A DNA stretch of 27,801 bases from a virus (taxonomy: Duplodnaviria > Heunggongvirae > Uroviricota > Caudoviricetes). A model generated the notes under the pieces. The model did not search any database, was not told the origin of the DNA, and saw nothing but the letters and a program-made list of their open reading frames with translations. Of this stretch, positions 1-26,993 are shown in pieces; the stretch's first letter is position 1, and every line of letters starts with the position of its first letter. The translations under genes and the position numbers were made by a program. The DNA lies in the IMG/VR virus record IMGVR_UViG_2802429218_000003, positions 1 through 27,801 of that record; one strand, given 5' to 3'.

Positions 1-45
1 ACATCGCCGGGCGTGCGCCAGAATCGCTGATTCAGTTTCTGTCAT
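1..45 (-). CDS. K: Tail assembly protein K, N-terminal fragment (runs off window edge)
   Basis: Minus-strand ATG at 43-45 followed by codons reading MTETESAILAHARRC, which matches the recalled start of lambda gpK; lies directly downstream of L as in lambda. Only 15 codons are in the window. Confidence 0.5.
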   Translation of the reverse strand, partial: MTETESAILAHARRC

Positions 46-49
46 GGAT

Positions 50-748
50 TTACTGCGAAAGTTTGTTAATGGAAAGGTAACCGCCAAAGTTGCCGAGGTT
101 ATTGCGAAACTTACAACCGCTCAGGCATTTGCTGCACTTATCCTTCGTGATATCGGACGTCGGCTGATCATATTCATCCGCGACCGCCGGACCGTGATAA
201 CCGCACTCATCGCCGCGATAGGTCCAGGTGCAGGTATTAGCCAGCATGATGCGCCCCGGAAAAACGGCACCATCCGTTTCCGTCGGTGTGGACAACACAA
301 AGGAGGCACTGACCGCGCTCAGTTCGCTGCACTGCTCGATGCGCCAGCGGCTGAGCACCTCCTGCTCCGGATCGGCGTCACTGTTTCCGTTGACGAAGTT
401 CACCGCATCCAGAAAACGGGCGTAAACCTTACGCCTGACCACCGTTCCGCCGACCAGACTCTGCAGATCTTCCGCCATACCGGTGACCATACCGTGCAGG
501 TTAGAAACCGTCAGTGTCGGACGGGCAGCACTGCCCTTGCCGTTCAGTTCAAATCCTGTCCCCTGAATGGGGTATGCCTGATACTGCCGCCCCTGCCAGG
601 TGACCGGCTCACCTTTTTCGTTCTGCTCATTACAGAAAAAATAACGTTCTCCACCGACCTCTGTCAGGTCGATTTCCCAGAGCACCACGCTGGCCGACTG
701 CTCCGCACGGGTGCATTCATTCAGTGTTTCCTGCCGGATATCCTGCAT
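50..748 (-). CDS. L: Minor tail protein L
   Basis: 232-aa ORF in the track; length and sequence match recalled lambda gpL; synteny M-L-K. Confidence 0.9.
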   Translation of the reverse strand: MQDIRQETLNECTRAEQSASVVLWEIDLTEVGGERYFFCNEQNEKGEPVTWQGRQYQAYPIQGTGFELNGKGSAARPTLTVSNLHGMVTGMAEDLQSLVGGTVVRRKVYARFLDAVNFVNGNSDADPEQEVLSRWRIEQCSELSAVSASFVLSTPTETDGAVFPGRIMLANTCTWTYRGDECGYHGPAVADEYDQPTSDITKDKCSKCLSGCKFRNNLGNFGGYLSINKLSQ

Positions 749-1077
749 CAGTTCACCACCTGTTCAAACTCTGCGCTGAACTCAACACGCAACATACTGA
801 CCCGCGACGACCATTTTGCGCAGGTCACCTTTATCTGCCGGTAGCCATAAGGCGGCGTCCACAGAAAGGCCTTCCAGCCCCCGTGCTCTGCCAGAAACGA
901 TTCCAGTGCCGTGGCCTCCTCGCGGGGAACAGAAAGCGTCACGCTGTACGTTTTCAGGTCGGCGTTCAGCCCGGCAGGCGCACGCTGAGAATAGCCATCA
1001 CCAAAGCGCACCTTTCTTACAGAAGGGGCCGAAGCCACATCCATACCGGGTTTCACTTTCCAGCGGAAGGTTTTCAT
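748..1077 (-). CDS. M: Minor tail protein M
   Basis: 109-aa ORF; matches recalled lambda gpM in length and sequence; overlaps the H stop and L start as in lambda. Confidence 0.9.
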   Translation of the reverse strand: MKTFRWKVKPGMDVASAPSVRKVRFGDGYSQRAPAGLNADLKTYSVTLSVPREEATALESFLAEHGGWKAFLWTPPYGYRQIKVTCAKWSSRVSMLRVEFSAEFEQVVN

Positions 1078-3653
1078 CGTCCACCTCCGGAGAACAGACC
1101 ACCATCGCGCATCTGCCCGGTCACAACATCCATTGCCGCCTTACGGGCTACGTCATAAACAGCTTTCAGTGCCTGTGGCCCTATCTGACCGTTCGTGCCG
1201 TCGTTGTTAATCACCACATGGTTATTCTGCTCAAACGTCCCGGACGCCTGCGAGCGGCTGTCCGCCATGCTGCCAGGTGTACCGACATAACCGCCGGTGG
1301 CATAGCCGCGCATCAGCCGGTAGAGATTTCCCACGCCAATCCGGCTGGTTGCCTCCTTCGTGAAGACAAACTCACCACGGTGAACAATCCCCGCTGGCTC
1401 ATATTTGCCGCCGGTTCCCGTAAATCCCCCGGTCGCAAAATAGAATTTCGCCGCAGCTGCCTGAATGGCTGTACCGCCTGACGCTGATGCGCCGCCACCA
1501 ACAGCCCCGCCAATGGCGCTGCCGATACTCCCGACAATCCCCACCATTGCCTGCTTAAGCAGAATTTCTGTCATCATGGACAGCACGGAACGGGTGAAGC
1601 TGCGCCAGTTCTGTTCACTGCCGGTCAGCATCGCCGCCATATTCTGCGCAATACCATCAAAGGTCTGCGTGGCTGCACTTTTAACCTGCGACATACTGTC
1701 CGTGGCGCTCTCTTCCCACTCACTCCAGCCGGACTTGAGGCCTGCCATCCAGCTCCCGCGAAGCTGGTCTTCAGCCGCCCAGGTCTTTTTCTGCTCTGAC
1801 ATGACGTTATTCAGCGCCAGCGAATTATCGCCATACTGTTCCTTCAGGCGCTGTTCTGTGGCTTCCCGCGCTGCCTGCCGGTCAGTAAGCCCCCGGTTTT
1901 TCGCCTCAATGGCTGCCCGTTTTGCCCGTTGTTGCTGTGCGAACTTATCCGCCTGCTGCGCCAGCGCATTCAGGTGCTCCTGATACGTGACCTTATCGCC
2001 AAGTACAGCCAGCTGGCGTTTGTACTCCAGCGTCTCATCTTTATGCGCCAGCAGGGATTTCTCCTGTGCGGACAGCTGGCGACGTTGTGCCGCCTCCTCC
2101 AGTACAGCGAACTGACTCTCCGCCTTCCACAAATCCCGGCGCTGCTGGCTGATTTTCTCATTCGCTCCGGCATGCTTCTCCAGCATCCGGAGTTCTGCCT
2201 GAAGCGTCAGCAGGGCAGCATGAGCACTGTCTTCCTGGCGATCGCCTGCAGACACTTTCACGCCGGACTGCTTCGGCTTTTTCAGCGTCGCTTCATAATC
2301 CTTTTTCGCTGCCGCCATCAGCGTGTTGTAATCTGCCTGCAGGATTTTCCCGTCTTTCAGTGCCTTATTCAGTTCTTCCTGACGGGCGGTATATTTCTCC
2401 AGCGGCGTCTGCAGGCGTTCGTAAGCCTTCTGCGCCTCTTCGGTATATTTCAGCCGTGATGCCTCAGACTCGGCCCAGTCCTTTGCTGCCATCTCTCTGG
2501 CCTTTTCAAGATCGGCCTGCAACGTGGCGGCTGAAAGCCCAAGTTGCGCATTCGCTCTGTCCTCCCATGCTCCCCGGAGATTGGCAAGAAATGCTGAGGT
2601 TTTACCGCGCCGGTGGCTCCGGCTCTGATACCACTGCCATTTTTTGTCCGCCTCATCAAAAGCCTTTTCTGCTTTCTCCAGCATTCCCTGGGCAGTGTCC
2701 GGGCGACCAATATCCAGCACCGAATCCCACATGGATTTGAATGCCCGTGCTGTCCTGTCTGCCCAGGTCTCCAGCGTGCCCATGTTCTCTTTCAGGCGGC
2801 GGGTCTGGTCATCAAACCCTTTCGTTGCGGCCTCGTTCGCCGCCTGCAATGCCCCGGCTTCATCTCCGGAACGCTGCAACTGAGCAACATACGCAATCTG
2901 CTCCGCCGTCACGTTATGGAACTGACGTGCCATCGCTGTCAGTCCCGACGTCGGGTCTGTGGTCAGCTTCCCGAAGGCTTCAGCGACCTTGTCCACCTCC
3001 ACGCCGGATGCAGAGGAGAAACGCGCCACACTCTGGCTGATCGCCTCAAACTGCTCACCACCACGCACACCGGCATTCACCAGCGCCGTCAGTGACTCGC
3101 TGGTCTGGTTAAACGTCAGCCCTGCCGCCTGCCCGGCTCTGGACAGGACCAGCATGCGATCTGCCGTCAGACCCGACTGATTGCCGGAAAGGACCAGCGT
3201 TTTGTTGAAATCGGACAGGGTTGAGTTGCCCTGATACCAGGCATACGCCAGCGCACCGGTCGCCACCGCCAGCGAGGTGGCCCCCACCATCGGCAGGGTG
3301 ATCGCACCGGCAAGCCCCCTGAACATGGGGATCATCCCGCCGAAGGAGTCCTTCACCTGACCACCCTGTTGCAGCAGGATCAGCCACGGACTTTGCCCGC
3401 CTGCAAGCTGCGTGGCCACGTCGGTGAACTGTGCAGGCAGCATACGCATGGCGGCTTTATACTGCCCGACGGAAATCCCCGCTTTCTGTGCAGCCAGCGC
3501 CTGTCGGCTCAGCGACTGTTCAACGACTGCCGCTGTTTTTTTCGCATCACTTTCCGTACCGGAAAAATGACGCCTGACTCTGGCCATCTGCTCGTCAAAT
3601 CTGGCCGCATCCAGACTTAAATCAACGACCAGATCGCCTACCGGTTCAGCCAT
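1074..3653 (-). CDS. H: Tail tape measure protein H
   Basis: 859-aa ORF with the lambda gpH N-terminus (MAEPVGDLVVDLSLDAARFDEQ), coiled-coil-rich middle and glycine-rich C-terminal region; lambda gpH is 853 aa. Confidence 0.95.
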   Translation of the reverse strand: MAEPVGDLVVDLSLDAARFDEQMARVRRHFSGTESDAKKTAAVVEQSLSRQALAAQKAGISVGQYKAAMRMLPAQFTDVATQLAGGQSPWLILLQQGGQVKDSFGGMIPMFRGLAGAITLPMVGATSLAVATGALAYAWYQGNSTLSDFNKTLVLSGNQSGLTADRMLVLSRAGQAAGLTFNQTSESLTALVNAGVRGGEQFEAISQSVARFSSASGVEVDKVAEAFGKLTTDPTSGLTAMARQFHNVTAEQIAYVAQLQRSGDEAGALQAANEAATKGFDDQTRRLKENMGTLETWADRTARAFKSMWDSVLDIGRPDTAQGMLEKAEKAFDEADKKWQWYQSRSHRRGKTSAFLANLRGAWEDRANAQLGLSAATLQADLEKAREMAAKDWAESEASRLKYTEEAQKAYERLQTPLEKYTARQEELNKALKDGKILQADYNTLMAAAKKDYEATLKKPKQSGVKVSAGDRQEDSAHAALLTLQAELRMLEKHAGANEKISQQRRDLWKAESQFAVLEEAAQRRQLSAQEKSLLAHKDETLEYKRQLAVLGDKVTYQEHLNALAQQADKFAQQQRAKRAAIEAKNRGLTDRQAAREATEQRLKEQYGDNSLALNNVMSEQKKTWAAEDQLRGSWMAGLKSGWSEWEESATDSMSQVKSAATQTFDGIAQNMAAMLTGSEQNWRSFTRSVLSMMTEILLKQAMVGIVGSIGSAIGGAVGGGASASGGTAIQAAAAKFYFATGGFTGTGGKYEPAGIVHRGEFVFTKEATSRIGVGNLYRLMRGYATGGYVGTPGSMADSRSQASGTFEQNNHVVINNDGTNGQIGPQALKAVYDVARKAAMDVVTGQMRDGGLFSGGGR

Positions 3654-4080
3654 ACCGGACTCCTCCTGCGATCCCTTCTGATACTGTCATCAGCATTACG
3701 TCATCCTCCGTCATGTCCGCCACATCCGGGGAAGCGGGGATAACTTCTTTCCCGTCCGGGCCAAAACGAACGCCTCCGGCAAGCCCTGCCGCTTTCTGCA
3801 TCAGCACATCATCTTCAGGCTCTTCGTCAGCCTCGCGCCGGTTCAGCAGACTGAAATCCAGCGGATGCATATCCGGATCGCTGAAAAACAGGCTGAGCAC
3901 GGTGTATGTCAGCCCGGAAAAGTGCATATCCAGCAGAACATCATGAAAATAATGGGTACTGTAAAAGCGGTGCCAGTCGGCATACTCCGTGGATGACATC
4001 CCGGCAAGCATGGCGCGCCAGTCGGGTCGCCCCATCTCACGCGCCAGTTTCAGGGCAAAACTCAGCTCACCGTCGAACAC
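3646..4080 (-). CDS. T: Tail assembly chaperone T frame (expressed as G-T fusion by -1 frameshift)
   Basis: 144-aa ORF in the -1 frame relative to G, overlapping the G 3' end; lambda arrangement with slippery heptamer at 4071-4077. Confidence 0.8.
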   Translation of the reverse strand: MFDGELSFALKLAREMGRPDWRAMLAGMSSTEYADWHRFYSTHYFHDVLLDMHFSGLTYTVLSLFFSDPDMHPLDFSLLNRREADEEPEDDVLMQKAAGLAGGVRFGPDGKEVIPASPDVADMTEDDVMLMTVSEGIAGGVRYG

Positions 4081-4484
4081 TTTCCCGCAGAAACAGGCTC
4101 TGCAGGCCCGGCGTCATCTGCCTGTTCAGGTGCATCATTCACAACAAACTCAGACATACCGGACAGACGCATTACCACATTTTCAGCCTGAGCAATTGCC
4201 TCTGTGGGCCAGGTGGTAAGCACTTCCTGCTCAATTTGTTTAACGGCTTCATTCATGGATGGCATCTTTGTCTTCTGCGGATGGTTATGCCACAGGGACA
4301 TCGCCACCAGAAAAGCACCGGTTCTGACGAGATCTTCCACGCTCACCTGTCGATTGACACTGGAGCCCGCCTGTTCTGCCTGTCGTTTCAGCAGGGCGAG
4401 ATGCTCAATACGCTGCAGGGCTGACAGTTCAGAAAGCGTGACGCTCACACCGTTATATTCAAATGATTCGGTTTTCAGGAACAT
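4062..4484 (-). CDS. G: Tail assembly chaperone G
   Basis: 140-aa ORF, same length as lambda gpG, located between V and T. Confidence 0.9.
   Translation of the reverse strand: MFLKTESFEYNGVSVTLSELSALQRIEHLALLKRQAEQAGSSVNRQVSVEDLVRTGAFLVAMSLWHNHPQKTKMPSMNEAVKQIEQEVLTTWPTEAIAQAENVVMRLSGMSEFVVNDAPEQADDAGPAEPVSAGKCSTVS
4071..4077 (-). other. Programmed -1 ribosomal frameshift slippery heptamer GGGAAAG (G to G-T fusion)
   Basis: Minus-strand sequence GGGAAAG sits near the end of the G reading frame where the T frame opens, as in lambda. Confidence 0.7.
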
Positions 4485-4499
4485 CGCTGACTCTCCGGA

Positions 4500-5240
4500 T
4501 TAACTGTCGGTGACGGTGATTTCTGCAACCGCAGCAAGTTCACCATTACCGGATACAACCGGAATGTTGACCTTGCCTGCAGCAACGCCGTTCACGGTGA
4601 TGGTCATACCGCTGACCGACACGGTGGCTTTTGTTTTATCCGCAGACACCGCACGGAAGCTCTTGTCGGTTGCGCCCTCCGGCTGGAATGCCACGGTCAG
4701 CGTGGTGCTCTGCCCTTTCACCACCGAAGTGCTGGCAGGCGTCACGGTCATGCCGGTTGCCGCTGTTACCGTGCTGCGATCTTCTGCCATCGACGGACGC
4801 CCCACGTTGGTGACTTTCACCGTGCGGGTGATCACTTCCTTCGCCGTCACCGCCTTACCGATACTGCTGACCCAGCCGCGGAACACATCGACCGTGCCGT
4901 TCGGGAAGCGGATTTTATAGGCACGGGTATCCCCTTCATTAAACCACGCCAGCAGCGCCTGCTGCCCCTGCTCTCCGGGCATCCACGCCAGCGTGAAGCT
5001 GGTATCTCCGGCGGATTTCTGACCCTGCCCGGTCGCGGTCCAGTCCGCATCTTCATCATCGAGATAACTGTCGTCACAGGACTCAGCGGTCAGTTCGCCG
5101 GGCGTCAGGTCTTTAACTTTTGCCAGACGCAACCAGTCAACGTCTGAAAGCGGATTCGCATAAGGGTTACCGCTCCCCTTATAAACCCACAGGGTGGTCC
5201 CGGCACCTTTCACCGGCATTGTAGGATTTGGTACAGGCAT
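4500..5240 (-). CDS. V: Major tail tube protein V
   Basis: Track ORF is 256 aa; the internal Met at 5238-5240 gives 246 aa beginning [10 protein letters not shown] (as lambda gpV) and has a GAGGA Shine-Dalgarno upstream. Confidence 0.9.
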
Positions 5241-5247
5241 AGCGTCC

Positions 5248-5643
5248 TCACATTTCATAGGTAATGACATAAGTCAGATCGGCTGAACTCCACAGGCCCG
5301 CATCATCGTCGCGCCGGTAGTCATAGCCACTGGCCACCATACTGGTGATCAAATCTGACAGTGCCGGGACATCGCTCATCACCGGATAAATCCGGGACTC
5401 CATCCACGCATCCAGCTCTGAATCCGGCACCTGAGCAGGCAGGAAAACTTCAATATGCAACTCCGCCTGCCAGGTATCGCTGTCCAGCTCTTCGCCCGTG
5501 TATTCAGCGCCGGTGAGATAAACGGCAATTGCCGGAAAATCCGCCTCATCAAAAACAGCGGGGCGACCATCAAAAAGCGTCGCCCCGGTGTCATGCTTCT
5601 CCAGTGCATCCAGTACGGCTGCACGGAGTTCAGTATGTTTCAT
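5248..5643 (-). CDS. U: Tail terminator protein U
   Basis: 131-aa ORF, same length as lambda gpU; synteny Z-U-V. Confidence 0.9.
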
Positions 5644-6218
5644 CGCTTTATTACCATTCTCAGTTGATGCTGCAGCGCATAGCCCAGCTCTTTCGGAAGA
5701 CGTTCACGCCGTATCCGCTCAATATTCTGTTTAAACGCCGTGGTCAGCGGCACCGCCATCGGGATTTTCACCACATCAATGGGGTAACGGTTTTTCCCGG
5801 CCACACGCTGCATGACATGCCAGCGGCCATTTTTCAGTTGCTGAATAAACGCGCCGGGAATACGACGGTTTCCCACCACAAGCACGCTGCCGCCACCTTT
5901 CAGGGCTGAACGCTGCCCCTTTTTACGACGCCTGCGGCGGGACAGGACAACCCGCGCGTTACCCAGCCTGATGACGGGCAAATCCCCCCTGTTAACCCTG
6001 ATTCTGGCCTGCGGATTTTTAACCGTGGCCCTTTTCAGCCTGGCCCTTTCCTTTACCAGTTTCCGGCGTACCTTTGTCTCACGGGCAACCTGTGCCGCCG
6101 ACTGCGATATCGCGGATGAAGCAACGCGGTTAATGGCCATTGCGGCGGCACCAGGCACCGCCGTTTTGCTGATACGGCTGAGGTTTTCAACGGCCTGCTC
6201 AAGACCTTTTATGGCCAT
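5640..6218 (-). CDS. Z: Tail completion protein Z
   Basis: 192-aa ORF, same length as lambda gpZ, overlapping the U start. Confidence 0.9.
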   Translation of the reverse strand: MAIKGLEQAVENLSRISKTAVPGAAAMAINRVASSAISQSAAQVARETKVRRKLVKERARLKRATVKNPQARIRVNRGDLPVIRLGNARVVLSRRRRRKKGQRSALKGGGSVLVVGNRRIPGAFIQQLKNGRWHVMQRVAGKNRYPIDVVKIPMAVPLTTAFKQNIERIRRERLPKELGYALQHQLRMVIKR

Positions 6219-6229
6219 ACATCCCCCTT

Positions 6230-6583
6230 TCAGCGGCGACGGTTAACGGCAGGCGGTACGCCCCGCCCAAGCCAGAGATGACAGCTTCCACCATCATCCG
6301 GCGAAACCCGGTCTATCCAGAAGTTTTCCTCACCGATGGTCAGCGTGTCTCCACGCCGCAGCTGCCGCACCTCATCAGTCCGGACAAACAGGGACGGGCT
6401 GGAGCCTTCAACGCGCACACCCTGTCCGGCATAGCTGATATTTTCAGGGTCATCAAAAACACCACGTATCACAGCACCGGACTGCTCACCGGATGTCATG
6501 GTGGCTGACGTTCCCATGTACCCGCGTATCGTTTCATCGGCGCAGGCAATGGCAGCATCGAACAGGTTATCGAAATCAGCCAC
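6230..6583 (-). CDS. FII: Head-tail joining protein FII
   Basis: 117-aa ORF, same length as lambda gpFII; synteny. Confidence 0.9.
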   Translation of the reverse strand: MADFDNLFDAAIACADETIRGYMGTSATMTSGEQSGAVIRGVFDDPENISYAGQGVRVEGSSPSLFVRTDEVRQLRRGDTLTIGEENFWIDRVSPDDGGSCHLWLGRGVPPAVNRRR

Positions 6584-6594
6584 AGCGCCTCCCG

Positions 6595-6990
6595 TTATTG
6601 CATTCTGGCCAGGCCACGTTCTGTCATTTCGGCTGCCACACCGGCAGAGACACGAAACGCCGTTCCCGGCAGCACAAATGCCACAGGTTCATCCCGCGAG
6701 GCGTGAAGTGCATCAGTATGCAGCGTCACCAGTGCCACGACCGTGACCAGAGCAGCCGTATCAGTCACAGTACCTGGCTGCGCTGACACCACCTCATTTT
6801 CATGCCCGGTCAGCGCATTTTCCGGGCTGACAGACGTGTCCTGACCGGCAGCGTCATCCGTGTCATCAAGCTCCTCTTCCAGCTCTGCCACACGGAGCGC
6901 CAGTTCTTCTTTCGTCCCCGTCAGGCTGACATCACGGTTCAGTTGCTCACCCAGCACCTGAAGACGGGCAATCAGTTCATCTTTCGTCAT
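6595..6990 (-). CDS. FI: DNA packaging protein FI
   Basis: Internal Met at 6988-6990 with a GGAGGAG Shine-Dalgarno directly upstream gives 131 aa starting MTKDELIARL, matching recalled lambda gpFI; the track ORF (144 aa) extends further upstream. Confidence 0.85.
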   Translation of the reverse strand: MTKDELIARLQVLGEQLNRDVSLTGTKEELALRVAELEEELDDTDDAAGQDTSVSPENALTGHENEVVSAQPGTVTDTAALVTVVALVTLHTDALHASRDEPVAFVLPGTAFRVSAGVAAEMTERGLARMQ

Positions 6991-7031
6991 GGACTCCTCC
7001 ACAGAGAAACAATGGCCCCGAAGGGCCACGA

Positions 7032-8057
7032 TTACGCCAGTTGTACGGACACGAACTCATCAGGGTCAGCCAGCAGCATCAGCGGTGCTGACTGAATCAT
7101 AGTGAACTCACGCGCCGGATCGCCGGATGTCTTCCAGTTTTTCGGATAACGAGGAGACGCATTAATACCCTCACTCAATGCATCCGCATCCTGAATACAA
7201 CCATAGGTGCGCAGACCGCGTGCCTGAGTGTTCCCCAGTACCATCGTGTTGTCCGGCAGAAAGTTCTTTTTGACGCCGTTTTCCACGTACTGTCCGGAAT
7301 ACACGACGATGGCCACATCGCCATACATCCCCTTATAGGACACCGCTTTACCCAGGTCTTTTACCGCTGTCTCCAGCTCGGAATGAGAGCCGCGACGGGT
7401 ATCCAGCTTCTCCCTGACGGCTTTGAAGGAACGGAACAGCGCCCAGCCTTTCGGATCAAACACGATGATATTCACCACACCGCTGGCGTTCAGCGCGTAG
7501 GCTTCGATATCGTCGGTCGGGTCATACGTGGACTTGTCGCGATTGCTCCACTCCGTGCCGCCGGACTGTGTGATGTTATTCGCCTCACTGCGGCCCATAT
7601 CCACCTCAACCGGATCGAAGGCTTCACCGGTCATGGTGTATTTGCCCTTAAGCACGGCAGAAACGGCCTGCATCTCTTCGACCTGAGCAATGGCAAGCTC
7701 CTCGTCTCGCATGTTCTGCATGATGATGCGACGGCGGCGGTAAGCCGGGTCCGCCAGATTCTGTGGATCTTCATCCGGCAGGCGACGCAGGGTCATCTGC
7801 GGATTCACCTCATGCTTGGGCTTGACATATCCCGGTGTAAATTCAGAGGTGGAGCCGCCACGGGAACGGATAACCTCACCGGAAACAATCGGCGAAACGT
7901 ACAGCGCCATGTTTACCAGTCCCGGAATTTGTGAGAGATAGACTTTCTCCGTAGTGAAGGGATAGCTCTCACGGAAAAAGAGACGCAGAAACAGCGGATC
8001 AAACTTAAATTTCTGCTCATTTGCCGCCAGCAGCTGGGCGGTTGTGTACATCGACAT
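7032..8057 (-). CDS. E: Major capsid protein E
   Basis: Internal Met at 8055-8057 gives 341 aa starting MSMYTTAQLLAANEQ, the lambda gpE length and N-terminus. Confidence 0.9.
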   Translation of the reverse strand: MSMYTTAQLLAANEQKFKFDPLFLRLFFRESYPFTTEKVYLSQIPGLVNMALYVSPIVSGEVIRSRGGSTSEFTPGYVKPKHEVNPQMTLRRLPDEDPQNLADPAYRRRRIIMQNMRDEELAIAQVEEMQAVSAVLKGKYTMTGEAFDPVEVDMGRSEANNITQSGGTEWSNRDKSTYDPTDDIEAYALNASGVVNIIVFDPKGWALFRSFKAVREKLDTRRGSHSELETAVKDLGKAVSYKGMYGDVAIVVYSGQYVENGVKKNFLPDNTMVLGNTQARGLRTYGCIQDADALSEGINASPRYPKNWKTSGDPAREFTMIQSAPLMLLADPDEFVSVQLA

Positions 8058-8112
8058 AAAAAAATCCCGTAAAAAAAGCCGCACATGCGGCCTTTAGTGA
8101 TGAAGGGTAAAG

Positions 8113-8445
8113 TTAAACGATGCTGATTGCCGTTCCGGCAAACGCGGTCCGTTTTTTCGTCTCGTCGCTGGCAGCCTCCGGCCAGAGCACATCCTCATAA
8201 CGGAACGTGCCGGACTTGTAGAACGTCAGTGTGGTGCTGGTCTGGTCAGCAGCAACTGCAAGAATGCCAACGGCAGCACCGTCGGTGGTGCCATCCCACG
8301 CAACCAGCTTACGGGTGGAGGTATCCGGCATCAGCGGGGTCATTGCAGGCGCTTTCGCACTCAATCCGCCGGGCGCGGTTGCGGTATGAGCCGGGTCACT
8401 GTTGCCCAGCGGCTGGTAATGGGTAAAGGTTTCTTTGCTCGTCAT
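8113..8445 (-). CDS. D: Head decoration protein D
   Basis: 110 aa from the third Met ([12 protein letters not shown]...), matching lambda gpD. Confidence 0.9.
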
Positions 8446-8454
8446 AAACATCCC

Positions 8455-9060
8455 TTACACTGGTGTGTTCAGCAAATCGTTAACGGCATCAGATGCCGGG
8501 TTACCTGCAGCCAGCGGTGCCGGTGCCCCCTGCATCAGACGATCCAGCGCAGTGTCACTGCGCGCCTGTGCACTCTGTGGTGCTGCGGCCAGAATACGGC
8601 GGGCCGTTTCCACGGTCATACCGGGGGTTTCGGCCAGCACGCGTGCCTGTTCTTCGCGTCCGTGAGCCTCCTCACAGTTGAGGATCCCCATAATGCGAGT
8701 GTTTTCTGCCGCAACCGCTGCGGTGATCTGCGCGTTCACGTCCGGCTGCGCAGCGCTGGCGTTCTCGCCCTCCGTCGCTGGCACCACGCCAGTAACGTCA
8801 GCCTGCGAAGCAGTGGCTGAAACAGTTGTTGATTGAGTCTCTTTGGTCATTCGCCCTCCTGAGAGACGGGATTTACGTGCATCCAGTGCATCACGCATAA
8901 CGGTGATCGCATCGGTGCTGTTGACAAGTTCATCAGCCAGTCCGGCATCAATGGCCTCCTGACCGCTGTACACTGCAGCCTCGGTATCCAGCACAGCCTG
9001 CACGGACAGGCCGGTATATGCCGACACCTTCTGCGCAAACATCCGGCGGGTTGCGTCCAT
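8455..9060 (-). CDS. Nu3: Scaffolding protein Nu3 (in-frame nested within C)
   Basis: Internal in-frame Met at 9058-9060 (MDATRRMFAQKV...) gives 201 aa sharing the C-terminus of C, as in lambda. Confidence 0.6.
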   Translation of the reverse strand: MDATRRMFAQKVSAYTGLSVQAVLDTEAAVYSGQEAIDAGLADELVNSTDAITVMRDALDARKSRLSGGRMTKETQSTTVSATASQADVTGVVPATEGENASAAQPDVNAQITAAVAAENTRIMGILNCEEAHGREEQARVLAETPGMTVETARRILAAAPQSAQARSDTALDRLMQGAPAPLAAGNPASDAVNDLLNTPV

Positions 9061-9754
9061 CCGGGACTGCAGTGTCTCCCGGACGTCATCCGGAAGATGG
9101 CTGTAGGGATTGCCATCCACCTTATGGCTGCCGCTGTAAATCAGCGTGATTTCCACGCCCTGTTTCTCCAGCGCAGCGCCGTAATTACTGTGAGCCATCA
9201 TGACGCCGATGGAGCCTGTCCGGGCGGTCTGCGTGACCAGACGCCGGGAGGCAGCACTGGCAAGCAGCTGACCTGCGCTGCAGTTCATGTCGTTGGCCAG
9301 CGCCCATACCGGCTTTATGTCACGCACACGGGCGATGATGTCAGCGCAGTCAAATGCCCCCGCCACCATTCCGCCTGGCGTATCCATATCGAGCAGAATG
9401 CCGTCCACCATCGGGTCACTGGCAGCCTGTTGCAGACGGGCGATAATGCCGTTGTAACCGGTCATTCCCGAATACGGCTGCAGCGCCCGCGTCCGGCTGA
9501 CCAGCGTACCGGACACCGGCAGCACGGCGATGCCGTTCATGACCTGATAACTGCGGGCCTGTCGTGGTCCGTCATCATCACCGGATAACGCCAGCGCCGC
9601 GGGTGCCTCTCCGGCAGTCAGGCTGTCGCCGGATACTGCATCCGTCAGGCGGCTGATCCCAAGCTGGCCTGCAAGCGCACAAAAGAAAACCCGCGCATAG
9701 GCGGGTTCAAGCATCAGCGGCTCATTAAAAGCCATGCTGGCAATATGCGGGAGA

Positions 9755-9774
<20 letters not shown>
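8455..9774 (-). CDS. C: Head maturation protease / scaffold protein C (GTG start)
   Basis: The track ORF (484 aa) includes an upstream extension; a GTG at 9772-9774 gives 439 aa (VTAELRNLPHIASMAF...), the lambda gpC length, and overlaps the B 3' end by 20 nt as in lambda. Confidence 0.85.
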
Positions 9775-13455
<3,681 letters not shown>

Positions 13456-13481
<26 letters not shown>

Positions 13482-14001
13482 TCAGCAACCCCGGTATCAG
13501 TTCATCCAGCGCGGCTGCTTTGTTCATGGCTTTGATGATATCCCGTTTCAGGAAATCAACATGTCGGTTTTCCAGTTCCGGAAAACGCCGCTGCACCGAC
13601 AGGGGGATCCCGTCGAGAATACTGGCAATTTCACCTGCGATCCGCGACAGCACGAAAGTACAGAATGCGGTTTCCACCACTTCAGCTGAGTCTCTGGCAT
13701 TCTTCAGTTCCTGTGCGTCGGCCTGCGCACGCGTAAGTCGATGGCGTTCGTACTCAATAGTCCCTGGCTGGAGATCTGCCTCGCTGGCCTGGCGCAGTTC
13801 TTCAACCTCCCGGCGCAGCTTTTCGTTCTCAATTTCAGCATCCCTTTCGGCATACCATTTTATAACGGCGGCAGAGTCATAAAGCACCTCATTACCCTTG
13901 CCACCGCCTCGCAGAACGGGCATTCCCTGTTCCTGCCAGTTCTGAATGGTACGGATACTCGCACCGAAAATGTCAGCCAGCTGCTTTTTGTTGACTTCCA
14001 T
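13456..14001 (-). CDS. Nu1: Terminase small subunit Nu1
   Basis: 181-aa ORF; sequence (MEVNKKQLADIFGASIRTIQNWQEQGMPVLRGGGKGNEVLYD...) matches recalled lambda gpNu1. Confidence 0.95.
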
Positions 14002-14225
14002 TGTTCATTCCACGGCCAAAAACAGAGAAAGGAAACGACAAAGGCCCAAAAGTTCGTTTTCAGCACCTGTCGTTTCCTTTCTTTTCAGGGGGTGTTTTAA
14101 ATAAAAACATTAGGTTACGGCGAAGAAGAACGGAAACGCCTTAAACCGGAAAATTTTCATAAATAGCGAAAACCCGCGCGCCTGACGCCCCGTAGCCTGC
14201 CGGATCGCTGGAAAGGACCCACAAA
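14002..14225 (-). other. cos: cos region (cosB, cosN, cosQ) upstream of Nu1
   Basis: Minus-strand sequence between Nu1 and 14220 aligns with the recalled lambda left-end/right-end junction (TTTTCGCTATTTATGAAAATTTTCCGG...); the position equivalent to the lambda 12-nt cohesive end is 14179-14190. Confidence 0.7.
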
Positions 14226-14240
14226 TGATAATAATTATCA
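14226..14240. promoter_or_regulatory. Perfect 7-1-7 palindrome TGATAAT-A-ATTATCA (Fur-box-like)
   Basis: Sequence read directly; it matches the textbook Fur-box core. It lies about 40 bp from the putative cosN and about 150 bp upstream of the 14389 ORF. Confidence 0.4.
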
Positions 14241-14388
14241 TCTACATGTCACAACGTGCATCTACGCCATCAAACCACGTCAAATAATCAATTATGACGC
14301 AGGTATCGTATTAATTGATCTGCATCAACTTAACGTAAAAACAACTTCAGACAATACAAATCAGCGACACTGAATACGGGACAACCTC

Positions 14389-14583
14389 ATGTCAACGAAG
14401 AACAGAACCCGCAGAACAACAACCCGCAACATCCGCTTTCCTAACCAAATGATTGAACAAATTAACATCGCTCTTGATCAAAAAGGGTCCGGGAATTTCT
14501 CAGCCTTGGTCATTGAAGCCTGCCGTCGGAGACTAACGTCAGAAAAGAGAGCATATACATCAATTAAAAGTGATGAAGAATGA
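14389..14583 (+). CDS. Small ribbon-helix-helix-like protein (lambda right-end ORF; YlcI/DUF3950-like)
   Basis: 64-aa ORF; the pattern RNIRFPNQMIEQINIALDQKG-GNFSALVIEACRRRL fits a beta-strand plus two helices of an RHH fold; an equivalent ORF is recalled at the lambda right end. Confidence 0.6.
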   Translation: MSTKNRTRRTTTRNIRFPNQMIEQINIALDQKGSGNFSALVIEACRRRLTSEKRAYTSIKSDEE

Positions 14584-14747
14584 ACATCCCGCGTTCTTCC
14601 CTCCGAACAGGACGATATTGTAAATTCACTTAATTACGAGGGCATTGCAGTAATTGAGTTGCAGTTTTACCACTTTCCTGACAGTGACAGACTGCGTGTT
14701 GGCTCTGTCACAGGCTAAATAGTTTGAATGATTAGCAGTTATGGTGA

Positions 14748-14954
14748 TCAGTCAACCACCAGGGAATAATCCTTCATATTATTATCGTGCTTCACCAACG
14801 CTGCCTCAATTGCTCTGAATGCTTCCAGAGACACCTTATGTTCTATACATGCAATTACAACATCAGGGTAACTCATAGAAATGGTGCTATTAAGCATATT
14901 TTTTACACGAATCAGATCCACGGAGGGATCATCAGCAGATTGTTCTGTATTCAT
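14748..14954 (-). CDS. Hypothetical 68-aa protein (lambda right-end ORF; YbcW-like)
   Basis: 68-aa ORF convergent with the RHH gene; an equivalent ORF is recalled in lambda and DLP12. Confidence 0.5.
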
Positions 14955-15238
14955 TTTGTCGCTCCATGCGCTTGCTCTTCATCTAGCGGTTAAAATATTA
15001 CTTCAAATCTTTCTGTATGAAGATTTGAGCACGTTGGCCTTACATACATCTGTCGGTTGTATTTCCCTCCAGAATGCCAGCAGGACCGCACTTTGTTACG
15101 CAACCAATACTATTAAGTGAAAACATTCCTAATATTTGACATAAATCATCAACAAAACACAAAGAGGTCAGACCAGATTGAAACGATAAAAACGATCTTG
15201 CAAACTACGCACTCTCATATCATATGGAAGGTTTATCT

Positions 15239-15649
15239 ATGGATCAGGTAGTCATTTTTAAACAAATATTTGATAAAGTTCGAAACGATTTAAACTATCA
15301 ATGGTTTTATTCTGAGCTAAAACGTCACAATGTCTCACATTACATTTACTATTTAGCCACAGAGAATGTTCATATTGTATTAAAAAATGATAATATAGTG
15401 TTATTAAAGGGCCTAAAAAACATTGTGTCTGTCAAATTTTCAAAGGATAGGCATCTTATAGAAACGACCTCTAATAAGCTGAAATCCAGAGAGATCACAT
15501 TTCAGGAATACAGAAGAAACCTTGCTAAAGCAGGAGTTTTTCGGTGGGTTACAAATATCCACGAACAAAAAAGATATTACTATACCTTTGATAAATCATT
15601 ACTCTTTACTGAAAACATACAGAGCACATCACAAATATTTCCACACTAA
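15239..15649 (+). CDS. Hypothetical protein, DUF1398/YbcV-like
   Basis: Track ORF 15224-15649; second Met at 15239 has a GAAGG Shine-Dalgarno and gives 136 aa; AT-rich; a lambda right-end ORF is recalled as similar but not identical. Confidence 0.6.
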
Positions 15650-15968
15650 ACCATAACGTCCGGTTTCTTCTACCCCAGCACCGGACTGGCTGACATGAAG
15701 AGCAACCCCGCGTTCAGTTGACGTGTTAATAACCCGGTGTACATCGTTTTTGATTATTCCCCCACACTTGTGCAGAAGGAGTTCCCCGTCAGGCTACAGT
15801 CATAATTAATGCAAGAGTACAGCGACGATACAGCGCACAGAAATAAATCAGGTATCCATTGACTTCACAAAGACGGTGCATAGCATCGACAGGAGTAATT
15901 GCGTAAATTGAACTCTTGGCACACTTTAGCCACCGGCGAATCTTCAGCGGATTATCCTTGGCCGGTTT

Positions 15969-16433
15969 TTATCTGAGGCATTGCTCTCGAATGTATAGCT
16001 GTGCCCCTTCAAGTTGTTTTTGCATTATTATCAGTCGCTCTCTGAGGGTGAAATAATCCCGTTCAGCGGTGTCTGCCAGTCGGGGGGAGGCTGCATTATC
16101 CACGCCGGAGGCGGTGGTGGCTTCACGCACTGACTGACAGACTGCTTTGATGTGCAACCGACGACGACCAGCGGCAACATCATCACGCAGAGCATCATTT
16201 TCAGCTTTCGCATCAGCTAACTCCTTCGTGTGTTTTGCATCGAGCGCAGCAACATCACGCTGACGCATCTGCATGTCAGTAATTGCCACGTTCGCCAGCT
16301 TCAGTTCTCTGGCATTTTTGTCGCGCTGGGCTTTGTATGTAATGGCGTTATCACGGTAATGATTAACCGCCCATGACAGGCAGACGATGATGCAAATAAC
16401 CAGAGCGGAGATAATCGCGGTTACTCTGCTCAT
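15969..16433 (-). CDS. Rz: Spanin inner-membrane subunit Rz
   Basis: 154-aa ORF matching recalled lambda Rz ([48 protein letters not shown]...). Confidence 0.95.
16031..16213 (-). CDS. Rz1: Spanin outer-membrane lipoprotein Rz1 (embedded in Rz, +1 frame)
   Basis: 60-aa ORF with lipobox (LVVVGC) and proline-rich stretch, nested within Rz exactly as in lambda. Confidence 0.85.
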
Positions 16434-20531: not shown

Positions 20532-20704
20532 TTCCTCGCACGATGTCTTAGCCACCGGATATCCCACAGGTGAGCCGTGTAGTTGAAGGTTTTTACGTCA
20601 GATTCTTTTGGGATTGGCTTGCGTTTATTTCTGGAGCGTTTCGTTGGAAGGTATTTGCAGTTTTCACAGATTATGTCGGTGATGCTTCGTCGCTGTCGCC
20701 TCAT
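20528..20704 (-). CDS. ninE: NinE
   Basis: Met at 20702-20704 gives 58 aa ([30 protein letters not shown]...) matching recalled lambda NinE; start overlaps the stop of the methyltransferase gene. Confidence 0.8.
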
Positions 20705-21228
20705 GCCGCCCTCCTGACGCCCCGCCCGATCGCCATCAATGCCGCTTTGGATACGGTAGTAAACATCCGTCGAGGACTGATGAGCGGTCGCCAAATCAGC
20801 AGCATGGAGCCTTTGCTGTTTCCCTTCTTCTCCAGCCCTGTCGATGGTTCGATAAAATTAATCCGTCCATCAGTGATAATGCGAACTTCGTCGACACTCT
20901 CCAGAGCCTTGCTGAACCATCCGACTGACATATCCTCTGGCACAAGCATAACTACCGTCTGTCGCTGTTGTATGCACTGCTCAGCGGCTTTTTCCACCCA
21001 CGGCCTGATATTGCTGTACGGTGGGTTATTCCAGATTGCACCGTGGCTTATCCACTCAGAATTTAGCGCGTCGTCGGCCTCAGTTAGCCAGTGAGCGCAC
21101 AGAGCGTTTTTGTCGCTCGCAGCTGAATCCAGCCAGAATCCAAACTCAATATCCAGCGCATCAAAAAGCCAAAGCGGCGTTTGCCAGCAGTCCTTGTCGT
21201 GTGCTGGCGTATTTGATTTGATAGTCAT
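20701..21228 (-). CDS. Phage DNA N6-adenine methyltransferase (Dam-like)
   Basis: 175 aa from the Met at 21226-21228, which overlaps the ninB stop (ATGA); contains the NPPY catalytic motif of N6-adenine methyltransferases; sits where lambda has ninC/ninD. Confidence 0.85.
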
Positions 21229-21671
21229 GCAGCCTTCCCTTTTCGTTGTGACCATTCATACTCTCGCCGGGAGTCATCACTCCACCGCACGTTGCGCTCT
21301 GAGCCGAACCAGAACATGATTTCGATAAGCTCAGTCATGCTGGCCTTTCGCATTTTGCTGGTACGCACGCCAAGCATAACAACGCCACCGTCGATACCAG
21401 GCGCACTTCGTTGCTCCAGTTTTTTGGTCTTAAGCCACAGGGCAGTGAACAGGTCTTTCCAGTCCTCCGGCGCAAGTCTCTCTCCATGCCAAAGCACCTG
21501 ACGCGATACGTCCTGCAATAACGCCCACATAAGGCGGTTTTGAGGATTGCTCCGCTTTGGTTCTTTAATGTGGACTTCGTGAGGTGACTTGTCGTCGATC
21601 GGAAGTGAGAGTATTGCGTCTATGGCGTTGTTTCTGATTGCTTCGTTGCGAAGCATGTATATTTGCTTCAT
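21225..21671 (-). CDS. ninB: NinB recombination protein
   Basis: 148-aa ORF; matches recalled lambda NinB (146 aa) in sequence and position. Confidence 0.9.
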   Translation of the reverse strand: MKQIYMLRNEAIRNNAIDAILSLPIDDKSPHEVHIKEPKRSNPQNRLMWALLQDVSRQVLWHGERLAPEDWKDLFTALWLKTKKLEQRSAPGIDGGVVMLGVRTSKMRKASMTELIEIMFWFGSERNVRWSDDSRREYEWSQRKGKAA

Positions 21672-24627: not shown

Positions 24628-25335
24628 ATGGTTCAGAATGAAAAAGTGCGCAAAGAATTCGCCCAGCGGCTAGCGCAAGCCTGTAAAGAAGCTGGTCTTG
24701 ATGAACATGGTAGGGGAATGGCCATAGCCCGTGCCCTTTCTCTTTCGTCCAAAGGCGTTAGCAAATGGTTTAATGCTGAGTCTTTACCGCGTCAGGAAAA
24801 AATGAATGCGCTTGCGAAATTTCTAAACGTTGATGTTGTTTGGCTTCAGCACGGCACTTCGTTAAATGGAGCGAATGATGAAGATACTCTTTCATTTGTT
24901 GGCAAATTTAAAAAAGGGTTAGTGCGCGTGGTTGGTGAGGCAATTCTTGGTGTTGATGGTGCCATCGAGATGACCGAAGAGCGCGATGGGTGGCTCAAAA
25001 TTTATAGCGATGATCCAGATGCCTTTGGCCTTCGTGTGAAAGGAGACAGCATGTGGCCCAGAATAAAATCAGGAGAATATGTACTCATTGAGCCTAACAC
25101 CAAAGTATTCCCGGGTGATGAGGTGTTTGTCAGAACCATCGAAGGACACAACATGATCAAGGTTCTTGGCTATGACAGAGATGGAGAATACCAATTTACA
25201 AGCATCAACCAGGACCACAGGCCAATAACGTTGCCTTATCATCAAGTAGCAAAGGTGGAGTATGTGGCTGGTATTCTGAAGCAATCTCGCCATCTGGATG
25301 ACATTGAGGCAAGGGAATGGCTGAAAAGTTCGTGA
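24628..25335 (+). CDS. cI: CI-type prophage repressor (N-terminal HTH, C-terminal LexA-like S24 peptidase domain)
   Basis: 235-aa ORF divergent from cro; HTH-like N-terminus; C-terminal domain with the GDSM serine motif (VKGDSMWPRI) typical of LexA/CI autocleaving repressors; sequence is not lambda CI. Confidence 0.9.
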   Translation: MVQNEKVRKEFAQRLAQACKEAGLDEHGRGMAIARALSLSSKGVSKWFNAESLPRQEKMNALAKFLNVDVVWLQHGTSLNGANDEDTLSFVGKFKKGLVRVVGEAILGVDGAIEMTEERDGWLKIYSDDPDAFGLRVKGDSMWPRIKSGEYVLIEPNTKVFPGDEVFVRTIEGHNMIKVLGYDRDGEYQFTSINQDHRPITLPYHQVAKVEYVAGILKQSRHLDDIEAREWLKSS

Positions 25336-25440: not shown

Positions 25441-26178
25441 TTGCAAAATAACTATCTACAGGTTATAGCCTATACTAGGCGCATGAATGATGGTATGACC
25501 AAGCCATTCCTTTGTACTTGCCAAGATGGGCTGGCTTACATAGTTAAAGGAAGGCCAAAACTTCGCCAAAAAGAGCTTGTAGCAGAATTTATTGCCGCCC
25601 ATCTAGCAAAACAGATAGGTCTGCCATGTCCTGATTTTTGCATTGTTGATGTTGATTGTGGGTTAATCGAGTTCATGCCTGACTTGCGTGGTGAGCTTTT
25701 GCCTGGACCTGCATTTGCTACCCGCTTTATTGAAAATGCATCAATCATAAATATTCAACAAGCAAGGAGTGCTGTAACCATTCAGGAACAAAAGAAAATA
25801 TTCTTCTTTGACCGCTGGATAAACAACGCAGACAGATCATTGACTGACATTGGTGGTAATGTAAACATAATTTACGATGCATTTAACAATAGGTATTACC
25901 TGATTGACCATAATCTGGCGTTCGCGCAGGATACAAGATCTCATGAGTATGATGTCCATGTGTATTCGCCGAATGGAAGACCGTGGGTTTTCGACATGCT
26001 CGACGAACCCGAACTGATGGATCTTGCAAATGATGCTATTAGTTCAGTAGAGGAGAAATTTAATCAGCTTCCGGATGAGTGGTTTTCAACCGATGAAGAA
26101 CGAAGGCTAATGCTGAATGAGATAATGAACTGCCTGAACAGAGTGCACGACAGAGAGTTTTGGAGTAACATCAAATGA
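25441..26178 (+). CDS. HipA-like kinase-domain protein (standalone C-terminal-domain type; start codon uncertain)
   Basis: 245-aa track ORF starting at TTG 25441 (AGGA 10-13 nt upstream); alternative ATG starts at 25483 and 25495. Segment ELVAEFIAAHLAKQIGLPCPDFCIV resembles recalled E. coli HipA (EYYCLLLAKELGLNVPDAEII); FFFDRWINNADRS aligns with the HipA catalytic loop VFQWLIGATDGHAKN but has Ser in place of His. Confidence 0.7.
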   Translation: MQNNYLQVIAYTRRMNDGMTKPFLCTCQDGLAYIVKGRPKLRQKELVAEFIAAHLAKQIGLPCPDFCIVDVDCGLIEFMPDLRGELLPGPAFATRFIENASIINIQQARSAVTIQEQKKIFFFDRWINNADRSLTDIGGNVNIIYDAFNNRYYLIDHNLAFAQDTRSHEYDVHVYSPNGRPWVFDMLDEPELMDLANDAISSVEEKFNQLPDEWFSTDEERRLMLNEIMNCLNRVHDREFWSNIK

Positions 26179-26993
26179 CCACACCATGCCTGTATAGCAT
26201 TATTAGATATGCTCCATATGCAGAAACCGAAGAGTTTGCTAATGTCGGTGTGGTTCTTTGTGCCCCGAAATTAGGTCAGTTTTGCTTTAAACTGACCCAA
26301 AGCAACAATGCCAGAGTAAAAAACTTTTTTCAGGATGAAATCATTTTCCCTCACGCGAGGGATGCAATTGCAAGAGAGCTAAAATTTGCTCAAGAGCAAA
26401 GTTATAAATTCAATTCTCCTGAAAAATTAGCAAATTTTTTCAACTACTTAATTGGCAGGAAAGAGTCAATCATTCATTTTAGCTCTGCAAGAGTTGCAAT
26501 GTCTGCTTGTCCACAAGACATGATGCACATACTTTTTAATAAGTTTGTACATCATTCAGAAATAACAAAAGAATCTCGTGAGACCATCCTGACGAGAGAG
26601 CTTAAGCATCGTTTCTCTCATTATAACGAACTCAGGAACGCCTTTAAAAAGGAAATGCTTGGTGGTGAACTAACGCGGTTTTCTGTACCATTTGTTGCCC
26701 GTCACGATGGAGAGATTTTATGTGCTATCAAACCCCTAACATTCACTCAGGACAAGCCTGAGAAAATGTTGGAGCACTGCGACTCTTGGACGGCCAAAAT
26801 TCTGCGCGCCGCCAGTGAAAAAATTTTATCTGTCTCAAATGTGTTATTTACGATAGATGCACCTCGCCAGCCAAGTGAGCTTGAGGTAAAAGCGATGAGT
26901 GAGATTCGTAAGACATTCGATGAGAAAGGTATAAATCACGTAGAGCATCAGGATGAAGCATCAATAGTAAAGTTTGCTAAGCAAGCAATTTAA
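26175..26993 (+). CDS. Hypothetical protein, partner of the HipA-like gene (possibly DUF3037-like)
   Basis: 272-aa ORF whose ATG (26175-26177) overlaps the upstream TGA (ATGA coupling); the N-terminal motif YSIIRYAPYAETEEFANVGVVL is tentatively recalled as characteristic of DUF3037; no catalytic motif recognised. Confidence 0.7.
   Translation: MTTPCLYSIIRYAPYAETEEFANVGVVLCAPKLGQFCFKLTQSNNARVKNFFQDEIIFPHARDAIARELKFAQEQSYKFNSPEKLANFFNYLIGRKESIIHFSSARVAMSACPQDMMHILFNKFVHHSEITKESRETILTRELKHRFSHYNELRNAFKKEMLGGELTRFSVPFVARHDGEILCAIKPLTFTQDKPEKMLEHCDSWTAKILRAASEKILSVSNVLFTIDAPRQPSELEVKAMSEIRKTFDEKGINHVEHQDEASIVKFAKQAI

Follow-up and report, generated by a model that had tools for sequence, protein, structure and literature searches.

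A probably functional cosN allele with five changes in the cohesive end, beside a terminase nearly identical to that of phage lambda

The cosN site of phage lambda is functionally asymmetric, as work from the Feiss laboratory has established (PMC4669245, sections 3, 7, 10, and 14, citing Xu and Feiss 1991). Sites mutated at bp 7-12 are affected minimally, and the C11G mutant not at all, whereas changes in the left half, such as G2C, are harmful (PMC4669245), and the left half is described as being under selection (PMC4669245, section 14). The asymmetry is explained by the TerS protein bound at R3, which positions TerL for the bottom-strand nick (PMC4669245). R3 is defined as bp 50-65 (PMC9026076), and its spacing from cosN is critical for nick placement, with even 3-bp changes being severely defective (PMC9026076, section 1.3). 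The 7-bp cosQ and the CG dinucleotides that flank the cohesive end are conserved (PMC4669245).

Several natural cosN variants have been described. Relative to lambda, the changed positions are bp 9 and 12 in N15 and phiD326 and bp 8, 9, and 11 in Gifsy-1 (PMC4669245); the cosN of mEp213 and LLS is GGGCGGCGCGCT (PMC12315714). The terminases of lambda and N15 show no specificity for one or the other of these two phages' cosN sites (PMC4669245). We checked the N15 cohesive end in its own record, where it is GGGCGGCGTCCG and a 12-base overhang is annotated.

The stretch of DNA analyzed here (the window) comprises 27,801 nucleotides, positions 1 to 27,801 of IMG/VR record IMGVR_UViG_2802429218_000003. 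Most of it is approximately 96-97% identical to lambda; the immunity region and some of the nin genes differ. On its minus strand, at 14179-14190, the window carries the 12-mer GGGCGTCAGGCG where lambda has the cohesive end GGGCGGCGACCT. Our analysis supports the view, with a probability of roughly 0.8, that 14177-14192 is a working lambda-type cosN allele, in the lambda register and served by what is essentially the lambda terminase; its function is deduced from homology. The features of the region are as follows.

14214-14220, minus strand: cosQ (GGGTCCT), the packaging-termination subsite; exact match to lambda, and invariant in the multiple alignment described below
14177-14192, minus strand: cosN, consisting of the 12-bp GGGCGTCAGGCG (14179-14190) and a CG on each side; assigned by homology
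14126-14141, minus strand: R3 of cosB (AGGCGTTTCCGTTCTT), the critical binding site for TerS (gpNu1); exact match to lambda
14083-14125, minus strand: spacer between R3 and R2, which in lambda contains the IHF site I1; conserved in the multiple alignment apart from a few substitutions
14067-14082, minus strand: R2 of cosB, an inverted R sequence (AGAAAGGAAACGACAG); exact match to lambda
14026-14041, minus strand: R1 of cosB (TTGTCGTTTCCTTTCT); one mismatch to lambda CTGTCGTTTCCTTTCT
13456-14001, minus strand: Nu1, terminase small subunit, 181 aa; 180/181 residues identical to lambda
11556-13481, minus strand: A, terminase large subunit (nuclease and motor), 641 aa; 638/641 residues identical to lambda

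The register of the site with lambda is exact. BLAST comparison with the lambda genome (NC_001416) aligned window 14191-15838 with lambda 46867-48502, at the right end, and window 2668-14178 with lambda 13-11527; the two alignments end at either side of the 12-mer, which therefore corresponds precisely to lambda bp 1-12. Five of the 12 bases are changed (G6T, G8A, A9G, C10G, and T12G), and bp 1-5, 7, and 11 are the same in both; G2 and C11 are thus retained, and T12G is held in common with N15. The minus-strand context reads ...GGGTCCTTTCCAGCGATCCGGCAGGCTACG / GGGCGTCAGGCG / CGCGGGTTTTCGCTATTTATGAAAATTTTCC..., and the flanks of the site are 91-97% identical to lambda. A multiple alignment of the window with DE3 (which bears an annotated "cos site" feature), PhiR26_1, 2H10, Kati, PhiR49_1, mEp332, and Stx1_9793 is gap-free across the site, and all seven comparison phages carry GGGCGGCGACCT. 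The window holds a single copy of GGGCGTCAGGCG, and a search of the whole window for the lambda GGGCGGCGACCT with up to 2 mismatches found neither this sequence nor a second canonical cos.

The first-pass annotation had reported five mismatches at this place on the minus strand, between flanks that align with the lambda cos junction, and had allowed that its lambda sequence or its alignment might be flawed. Comparison with the lambda reference upheld the sequence, the coordinates, and the count, as well as the alignment of both flanks; the check that it had proposed, an alignment against lambda cos, shows that GGGCGGCGACCT is not intact at cosN. The suspected flaw is dispelled by the same reference, which has GGGCGGCGACCT in the register used. 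An artefact of sequencing or assembly, or a mistaken lambda sequence, can be regarded as already refuted, given this confirmation and the fact that unrelated projects have recovered the variant 12-mer from isolate genomes, from IMG/VR contigs, and from metagenomes.

Within a 13.2-kb alignment to lambda that is 3.8% divergent, the cohesive end is the sole 12-base stretch with at least five differences between window positions 15422 and 7184. About 20 patches with at least five differences per 12 bases occur across the whole mosaic alignment (13 kb), so mismatch density alone is not exceptional, and the weight of the argument falls on the position of the changes at the cohesive end and on their recurrence elsewhere. 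The proposal that the mismatch cluster is statistically exceptional by itself was rejected on these grounds.

The surroundings of the 12-mer have the architecture and spacing of lambda cos. CosQ is placed 30 to 24 bases before the cohesive end, the lambda spacing, and corresponds in position to lambda 48473-48479. CosB has all of R3, I1, R2, and R1, and Nu1/A-type terminase genes are adjacent. The single mismatch in R1 is a variant also present in phages PhiR26_1 and 2H10, and the I1 assignment is made purely by homology (PMC9026076, Figure 1 legend). Both nick-flanking dinucleotides are kept, the stretch at 14177-14192 reading CG-GGGCGTCAGGCG-CG without any indel relative to lambda; two-fold symmetry, counted from the sequence, falls from 10 of 16 bp in lambda to 8 of 16 bp in the window allele. 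R3 occupies bp 50-65 from the first cohesive-end base, as in lambda. From homology and this conserved spacing, the top strand is predicted to be nicked between 14191 and 14190 and the bottom strand between 14179 and 14178.

Counted from the first cohesive-end base, the start codon of Nu1 lies at bp 190 in the window and at bp 191 in NC_001416 (window 14001-14066). This 1-bp difference is common to DE3 and most related loci; it falls between R2 and R1 and leaves the R3 spacing unaffected.

It is conceivable that the site is cut off the lambda register, since AGGCGCGCGGG offers alternative CG steps that could shift the bottom-strand nick and so alter the length or sequence of the overhang. The right flank reads GGCGCGCG, with repeated CG steps, and the TerL nuclease is low in intrinsic sequence specificity (PMC9026076, section 1.3). 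In lambda, however, the R3-to-cosN spacing determines where the nicks fall (PMC9026076, section 1.3), and this spacing is unchanged here (R3 at bp 50-65); N15, like the window, carries G at bp 12 and has an annotated overhang of 12 bases; a shifted register is therefore very unlikely.

The terminase is 99.5% identical to that of lambda, the identities of both subunits bearing out the earlier description of Nu1 and A as lambda-like. Three substitutions distinguish gpA in the window from its lambda counterpart (D185E, S268A, and I459V), and all are common polymorphisms found beside every cosN allele. Comparison of 39 unique gpA proteins from loci with the lambda allele and 36 from loci with AGGCG-type alleles identified no residue that is fixed and different between the two classes. 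Compensating changes in gpA for the altered site are thus ruled out, all three substitutions being polymorphic in both allele classes. The window allele coexists with a terminase indistinguishable from that found beside the lambda allele. The expectation that a lambda-like Nu1 and A should be accompanied by an unaltered cosN does not hold: dozens of loci pair a gpA at least 99% identical to lambda's with a non-lambda cosN, including the related allele GGGCGGAAGGCG.

The rest of the prophage appears sound. Of the lambda late, lysis, and replication genes, 22 were tested (Nu1, A, W, B, C, D, E, FI, FII, Z, U, V, G, H, M, L, S, R, Rz, Q, O, and P); each is full length, with 86-100% amino-acid identity to lambda, and no sign of decay was seen within the window, which covers 27.8 kb of a prophage that may have defects beyond it.

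The window allele is one of the known kind of natural cosN variant. As in N15 and phiD326, Gifsy-1, and mEp213 and LLS, change is concentrated in the cosB-proximal right half, and GGGCG at bp 1-5 and the CG dinucleotides are kept; those phages differ from lambda at two or three positions within bp 8-12, whereas the window allele differs at five, four of them at bp 8, 9, 10, and 12 and the fifth at bp 6, outside the segment bp 7-12. The closest relative is GGGCGGAAGGCG, which occurs in Escherichia lambda-like prophages and N15-like plasmid prophages and has the same AGGCG right half (bp 8-12), often together with the left-flank changes of the window (G at -11 and C at -5), a lambda-type cosB, and a gpA at least 99% identical to lambda's. 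It differs from the window allele in having GA in place of TC at bp 6-7, is about ten times commoner, and is represented in deposited phage genomes.

Exact copies of GGGCGTCAGGCG were found in approximately 25 contigs or loci with many different flanks, a count which, like the others given here for IMG/VR and the genome collections, includes related strains and does not represent independent events. A generic scan of IMG/VR for cos flanks gave almost solely the lambda 12-mer among the matches listed. A targeted scan for GGGCG-NN-AGGCG identified 96 viral contigs, with GGGCGGAAGGCG in 78, GGGCGTCAGGCG in 14, and GGGCGGCAGGCG in 4. When bp 1-11 were left free and a base other than T was required at bp 12, the cos-like contexts recovered always had GGGCG at bp 1-5, with variation at bp 6-12, and included only one derivative of the window allele (GGGCGTCAGACG). 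In metagenomes, the exact window allele was found on nine contigs.

Among 5,426 complete E. coli genomes, with alleles read from bands of identity to the window allele plus lambda-type cosB, about 10 records match at 99% or more; about 132 fall at 95-99%, mostly the GGAA relative GGGCGGAAGGCG, and about 3,200 at 90-95%, the lambda allele. Taking the best match in each complete E. coli genome record, the identity bands correspond very roughly to 0.2% of records for GGGCGTCAGGCG and 2-3% for GGGCGGAAGGCG. A scan of one genome per species for the variant pattern found it in Escherichia sp. E1V33 only, which carries GGGCGGAAGGCG.

The exact allele is absent from all 50,697 phage records searched, and hence from any record there with defined ends; only the GGAA relative GGGCGGAAGGCG is present among them, in two records, neither of which has its ends at cos. 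In the deposited genomes of PhiR46_1 (host recorded as ECOR13) and YDC107_1, GGGCGGAAGGCG is accompanied by lambda-like Nu1 and A; our literature search found no paper describing the PhiR phages or plaque formation by PhiR46_1.

Alleles and flanks reassort freely: the window allele was seen beside eight or more left-flank haplotypes and three or more cosB types, and the same flanks were found with all three main alleles (lambda, GGAA, and TC). One independent lambda-like phage region (L201) has different upstream sequence, the same 12-mer, and full-length genes from Nu1 through V; three more loci (L220, L236, and L237) place the exact allele in further lambda-cosB contexts. Recurrence of T at bp 6 in approximately 25 loci indicates a stable allele. 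The change in the window looks like an allele replacement, accompanied by the linked G at -11 and C at -5 that are common to other AGGCG-type loci.

Some loci carry more than one cos site. One IMG/VR locus (L151) has two, one reading GGGCGGAAGGCG beside lambda cosB and the other GGGCGGCGACCT beside a different cosB, and is probably a phage plus a satellite; two others (L160 and L170) are two cos sites on the same 56-kb contig. The window allele with lambda-type cosB was also found in a heavily degraded prophage of E. coli ETEC1730 (L243, NZ_CP122832 3953671-3965743), which has a truncated Nu1, lacks A, and retains portal, decoration, and tail-fibre genes in partial form.

Most occurrences of the exact allele belong to a second genomic setting, a small satellite element, and not to autonomous phages. 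In 10 of the 16 loci of a first tabulation, and in 6 of the 9 metagenome contigs (plus one hybrid), it does not adjoin lambda Nu1 and A. The order there is an E-like capsid gene, a D-like decoration gene, AlpA, cosQ and cosN, a different cosB, and a TerS of the Nu1 family with 35% identity to lambda Nu1; the element has no large terminase gene. Such satellite loci include those of E. coli KE47 (L223, NZ_CP141089 697448-704489) and E. coli 95-3322 (L242, NZ_CP027461 1456589-1468660), as well as L112, L163, L233-L235, and L239-L241. In several contigs the satellite interrupts the capsid gene E of its helper, homology to the window breaking at approximately 7813-7828. The annotation of E. coli 95-3322 places an integrase, a primase, capsid and decoration proteins, an HTH protein, cos, and TerS within the split major capsid gene. 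This element matches the "helper-embedded satellites" of bioRxiv 10.1101/2022.07.18.500453.

The cos of these satellites (PICI or helper-embedded elements of the 11capE type, situated in capsid gene E) has the identical GGGCGTCAGGCG and a near-identical stretch from cosQ to cosN. Unlike them, the window has the site in the phage's own cos position, upstream of Nu1 and A and with lambda cosB. No satellite genes (int, alpA, or primase) were found near the window cos; Nu1 and A lie immediately downstream, the lysis genes lie upstream, and gene E (7035-8057) is uninterrupted.

In E. coli 95-3322 the helper cos (L246, 13398-13409) has the lambda allele and the embedded satellite (L242, approximately 6010-6021) has GGGCGTCAGGCG. 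Packaging of this satellite by its helper would require a single TerL to cut both alleles; helper gene C is annotated with an internal stop, so the pair may be inactive. Four loci (L155, L206, L238, and L242) have a hybrid cos, in which a satellite-type left flank (the AlpA side) is joined at cosN to a lambda-type cosB with the R3 sequence. These hybrid sites show that the cos regions of phages and satellites have recombined with each other at the nick site or adjacent to it.

With the distribution in hand, the possibility that cosN is crippled can be weighed. By this account, which the first-pass annotation had raised as a defective cos in a decaying prophage, the prophage was recently inactivated or is decaying, and the five changes, G6T especially, prevent efficient nicking. 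The absence of the exact allele from all 50,697 phage records, its presence in the degraded ETEC1730 prophage, the location of bp 6 in the half reported to be under selection (PMC4669245), and the failure of the embedded satellite of bioRxiv 10.1101/2022.07.18.500453 to yield detectable plaque-forming virions all fit such a site. However, none of the 22 genes tested is shortened, and cosQ, R3, and R2 match lambda exactly; the same 12-mer is kept over at least eight flank haplotypes, several cosB types, and both phage and satellite contexts; and drift in dead DNA would scatter changes, whereas here they are confined to the tolerated segment and bp 6, with both CG dinucleotides kept. The five-change pattern resembles an allele swap rather than decay, and we consider a crippled site unlikely.

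A working allele in the lambda register is consistent with a simple sequence of events. gpNu1 would bind the intact cosB (R3, I1, R2, and R1) and anchor gpA, which would nick the two strands 12 bp apart, beside the conserved CG dinucleotides and at the lambda positions. The 5′ overhangs of the virion DNA would then be GGGCGTCAGGCG (left) and CGCCTGACGCCC (right) instead of the lambda GGGCGGCGACCT and AGGTCGCCGCCC, and no change in the terminase would be needed. Because the bottom-strand nick would be placed by the cosB anchor, bp 7-12 would be largely free to vary. Most likely the allele would have entered this otherwise lambda-like genome through recombination, or through the joining of ends at cos; its source would be the pool of cosN alleles circulating among Escherichia lambda-like prophages and their embedded satellites. 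Of the three readings that the annotation had offered, a different cohesive end is the best supported; nicking at the predicted positions, and with it a viable prophage, are what the sequence comparisons lead us to expect.

The ends so produced are predicted to be as cohesive among themselves as those of lambda, with a self-annealing energy of -18.7 kcal/mol for the window allele and -19.0 for lambda. Annealing between window and lambda ends is predicted to be poor, at approximately -9 kcal/mol, compared with approximately -15 for the tolerated mismatch between lambda and N15; the DNA of phages with such ends would thus be expected not to anneal to lambda cohesive ends. As cross-annealing is about half as stable as self-annealing and far weaker than the tolerated lambda/N15 mismatch, AGGCG-type and lambda-type ends could form two mutually incompatible sticky-end groups, a speculative idea to which we give little credence. 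If it were true, the difference in ends could stop hybrid chromosomes of helper and satellite, or of two phages, from circularizing, and the satellite-type end of the window phage would have come to it through recombination or cos-to-cos packaging.

With this allele, the natural variation documented for cosN reaches five changes, one of them at bp 6, and the same sticky-end allele is seen to be common to phages and their embedded satellites. A mismatch between its cos and the lambda 12-mer is no reason to score a prophage of this kind as packaging-defective, and tools that locate cos or genome termini by the exact GGGCGGCGACCT would miss both GGGCGTCAGGCG and the commoner GGGCGGAAGGCG. A literature search for the 12-mers and their complements returned unrelated hits only. 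A 2017 survey by Vahanian et al. is said to cover natural cosN variants and may list the allele; relative to the variants described above, its novelty is modest: it has five changes, of which one falls in the "conserved" left half, and it is enriched in satellites that are embedded in lambda-like prophages.

Outside the cos region, the window departs from lambda at several places. In the position of lambda rexA and rexB, a gene for a HipA_2-family kinase is followed by a DUF3037 gene (25441-26993, plus strand); the pair adjoins a gene for a cI-like repressor (24628-25335) and may constitute a defence or toxin module. The nin region includes a gene for a Dam-family N6-adenine methyltransferase (20701-21255, minus strand) that does not align to lambda. 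At 15838-15978, lambda 46421-46867 (bor) is without a counterpart; as only about 140 bp separate Rz from a DUF1398 gene, bor is apparently absent.
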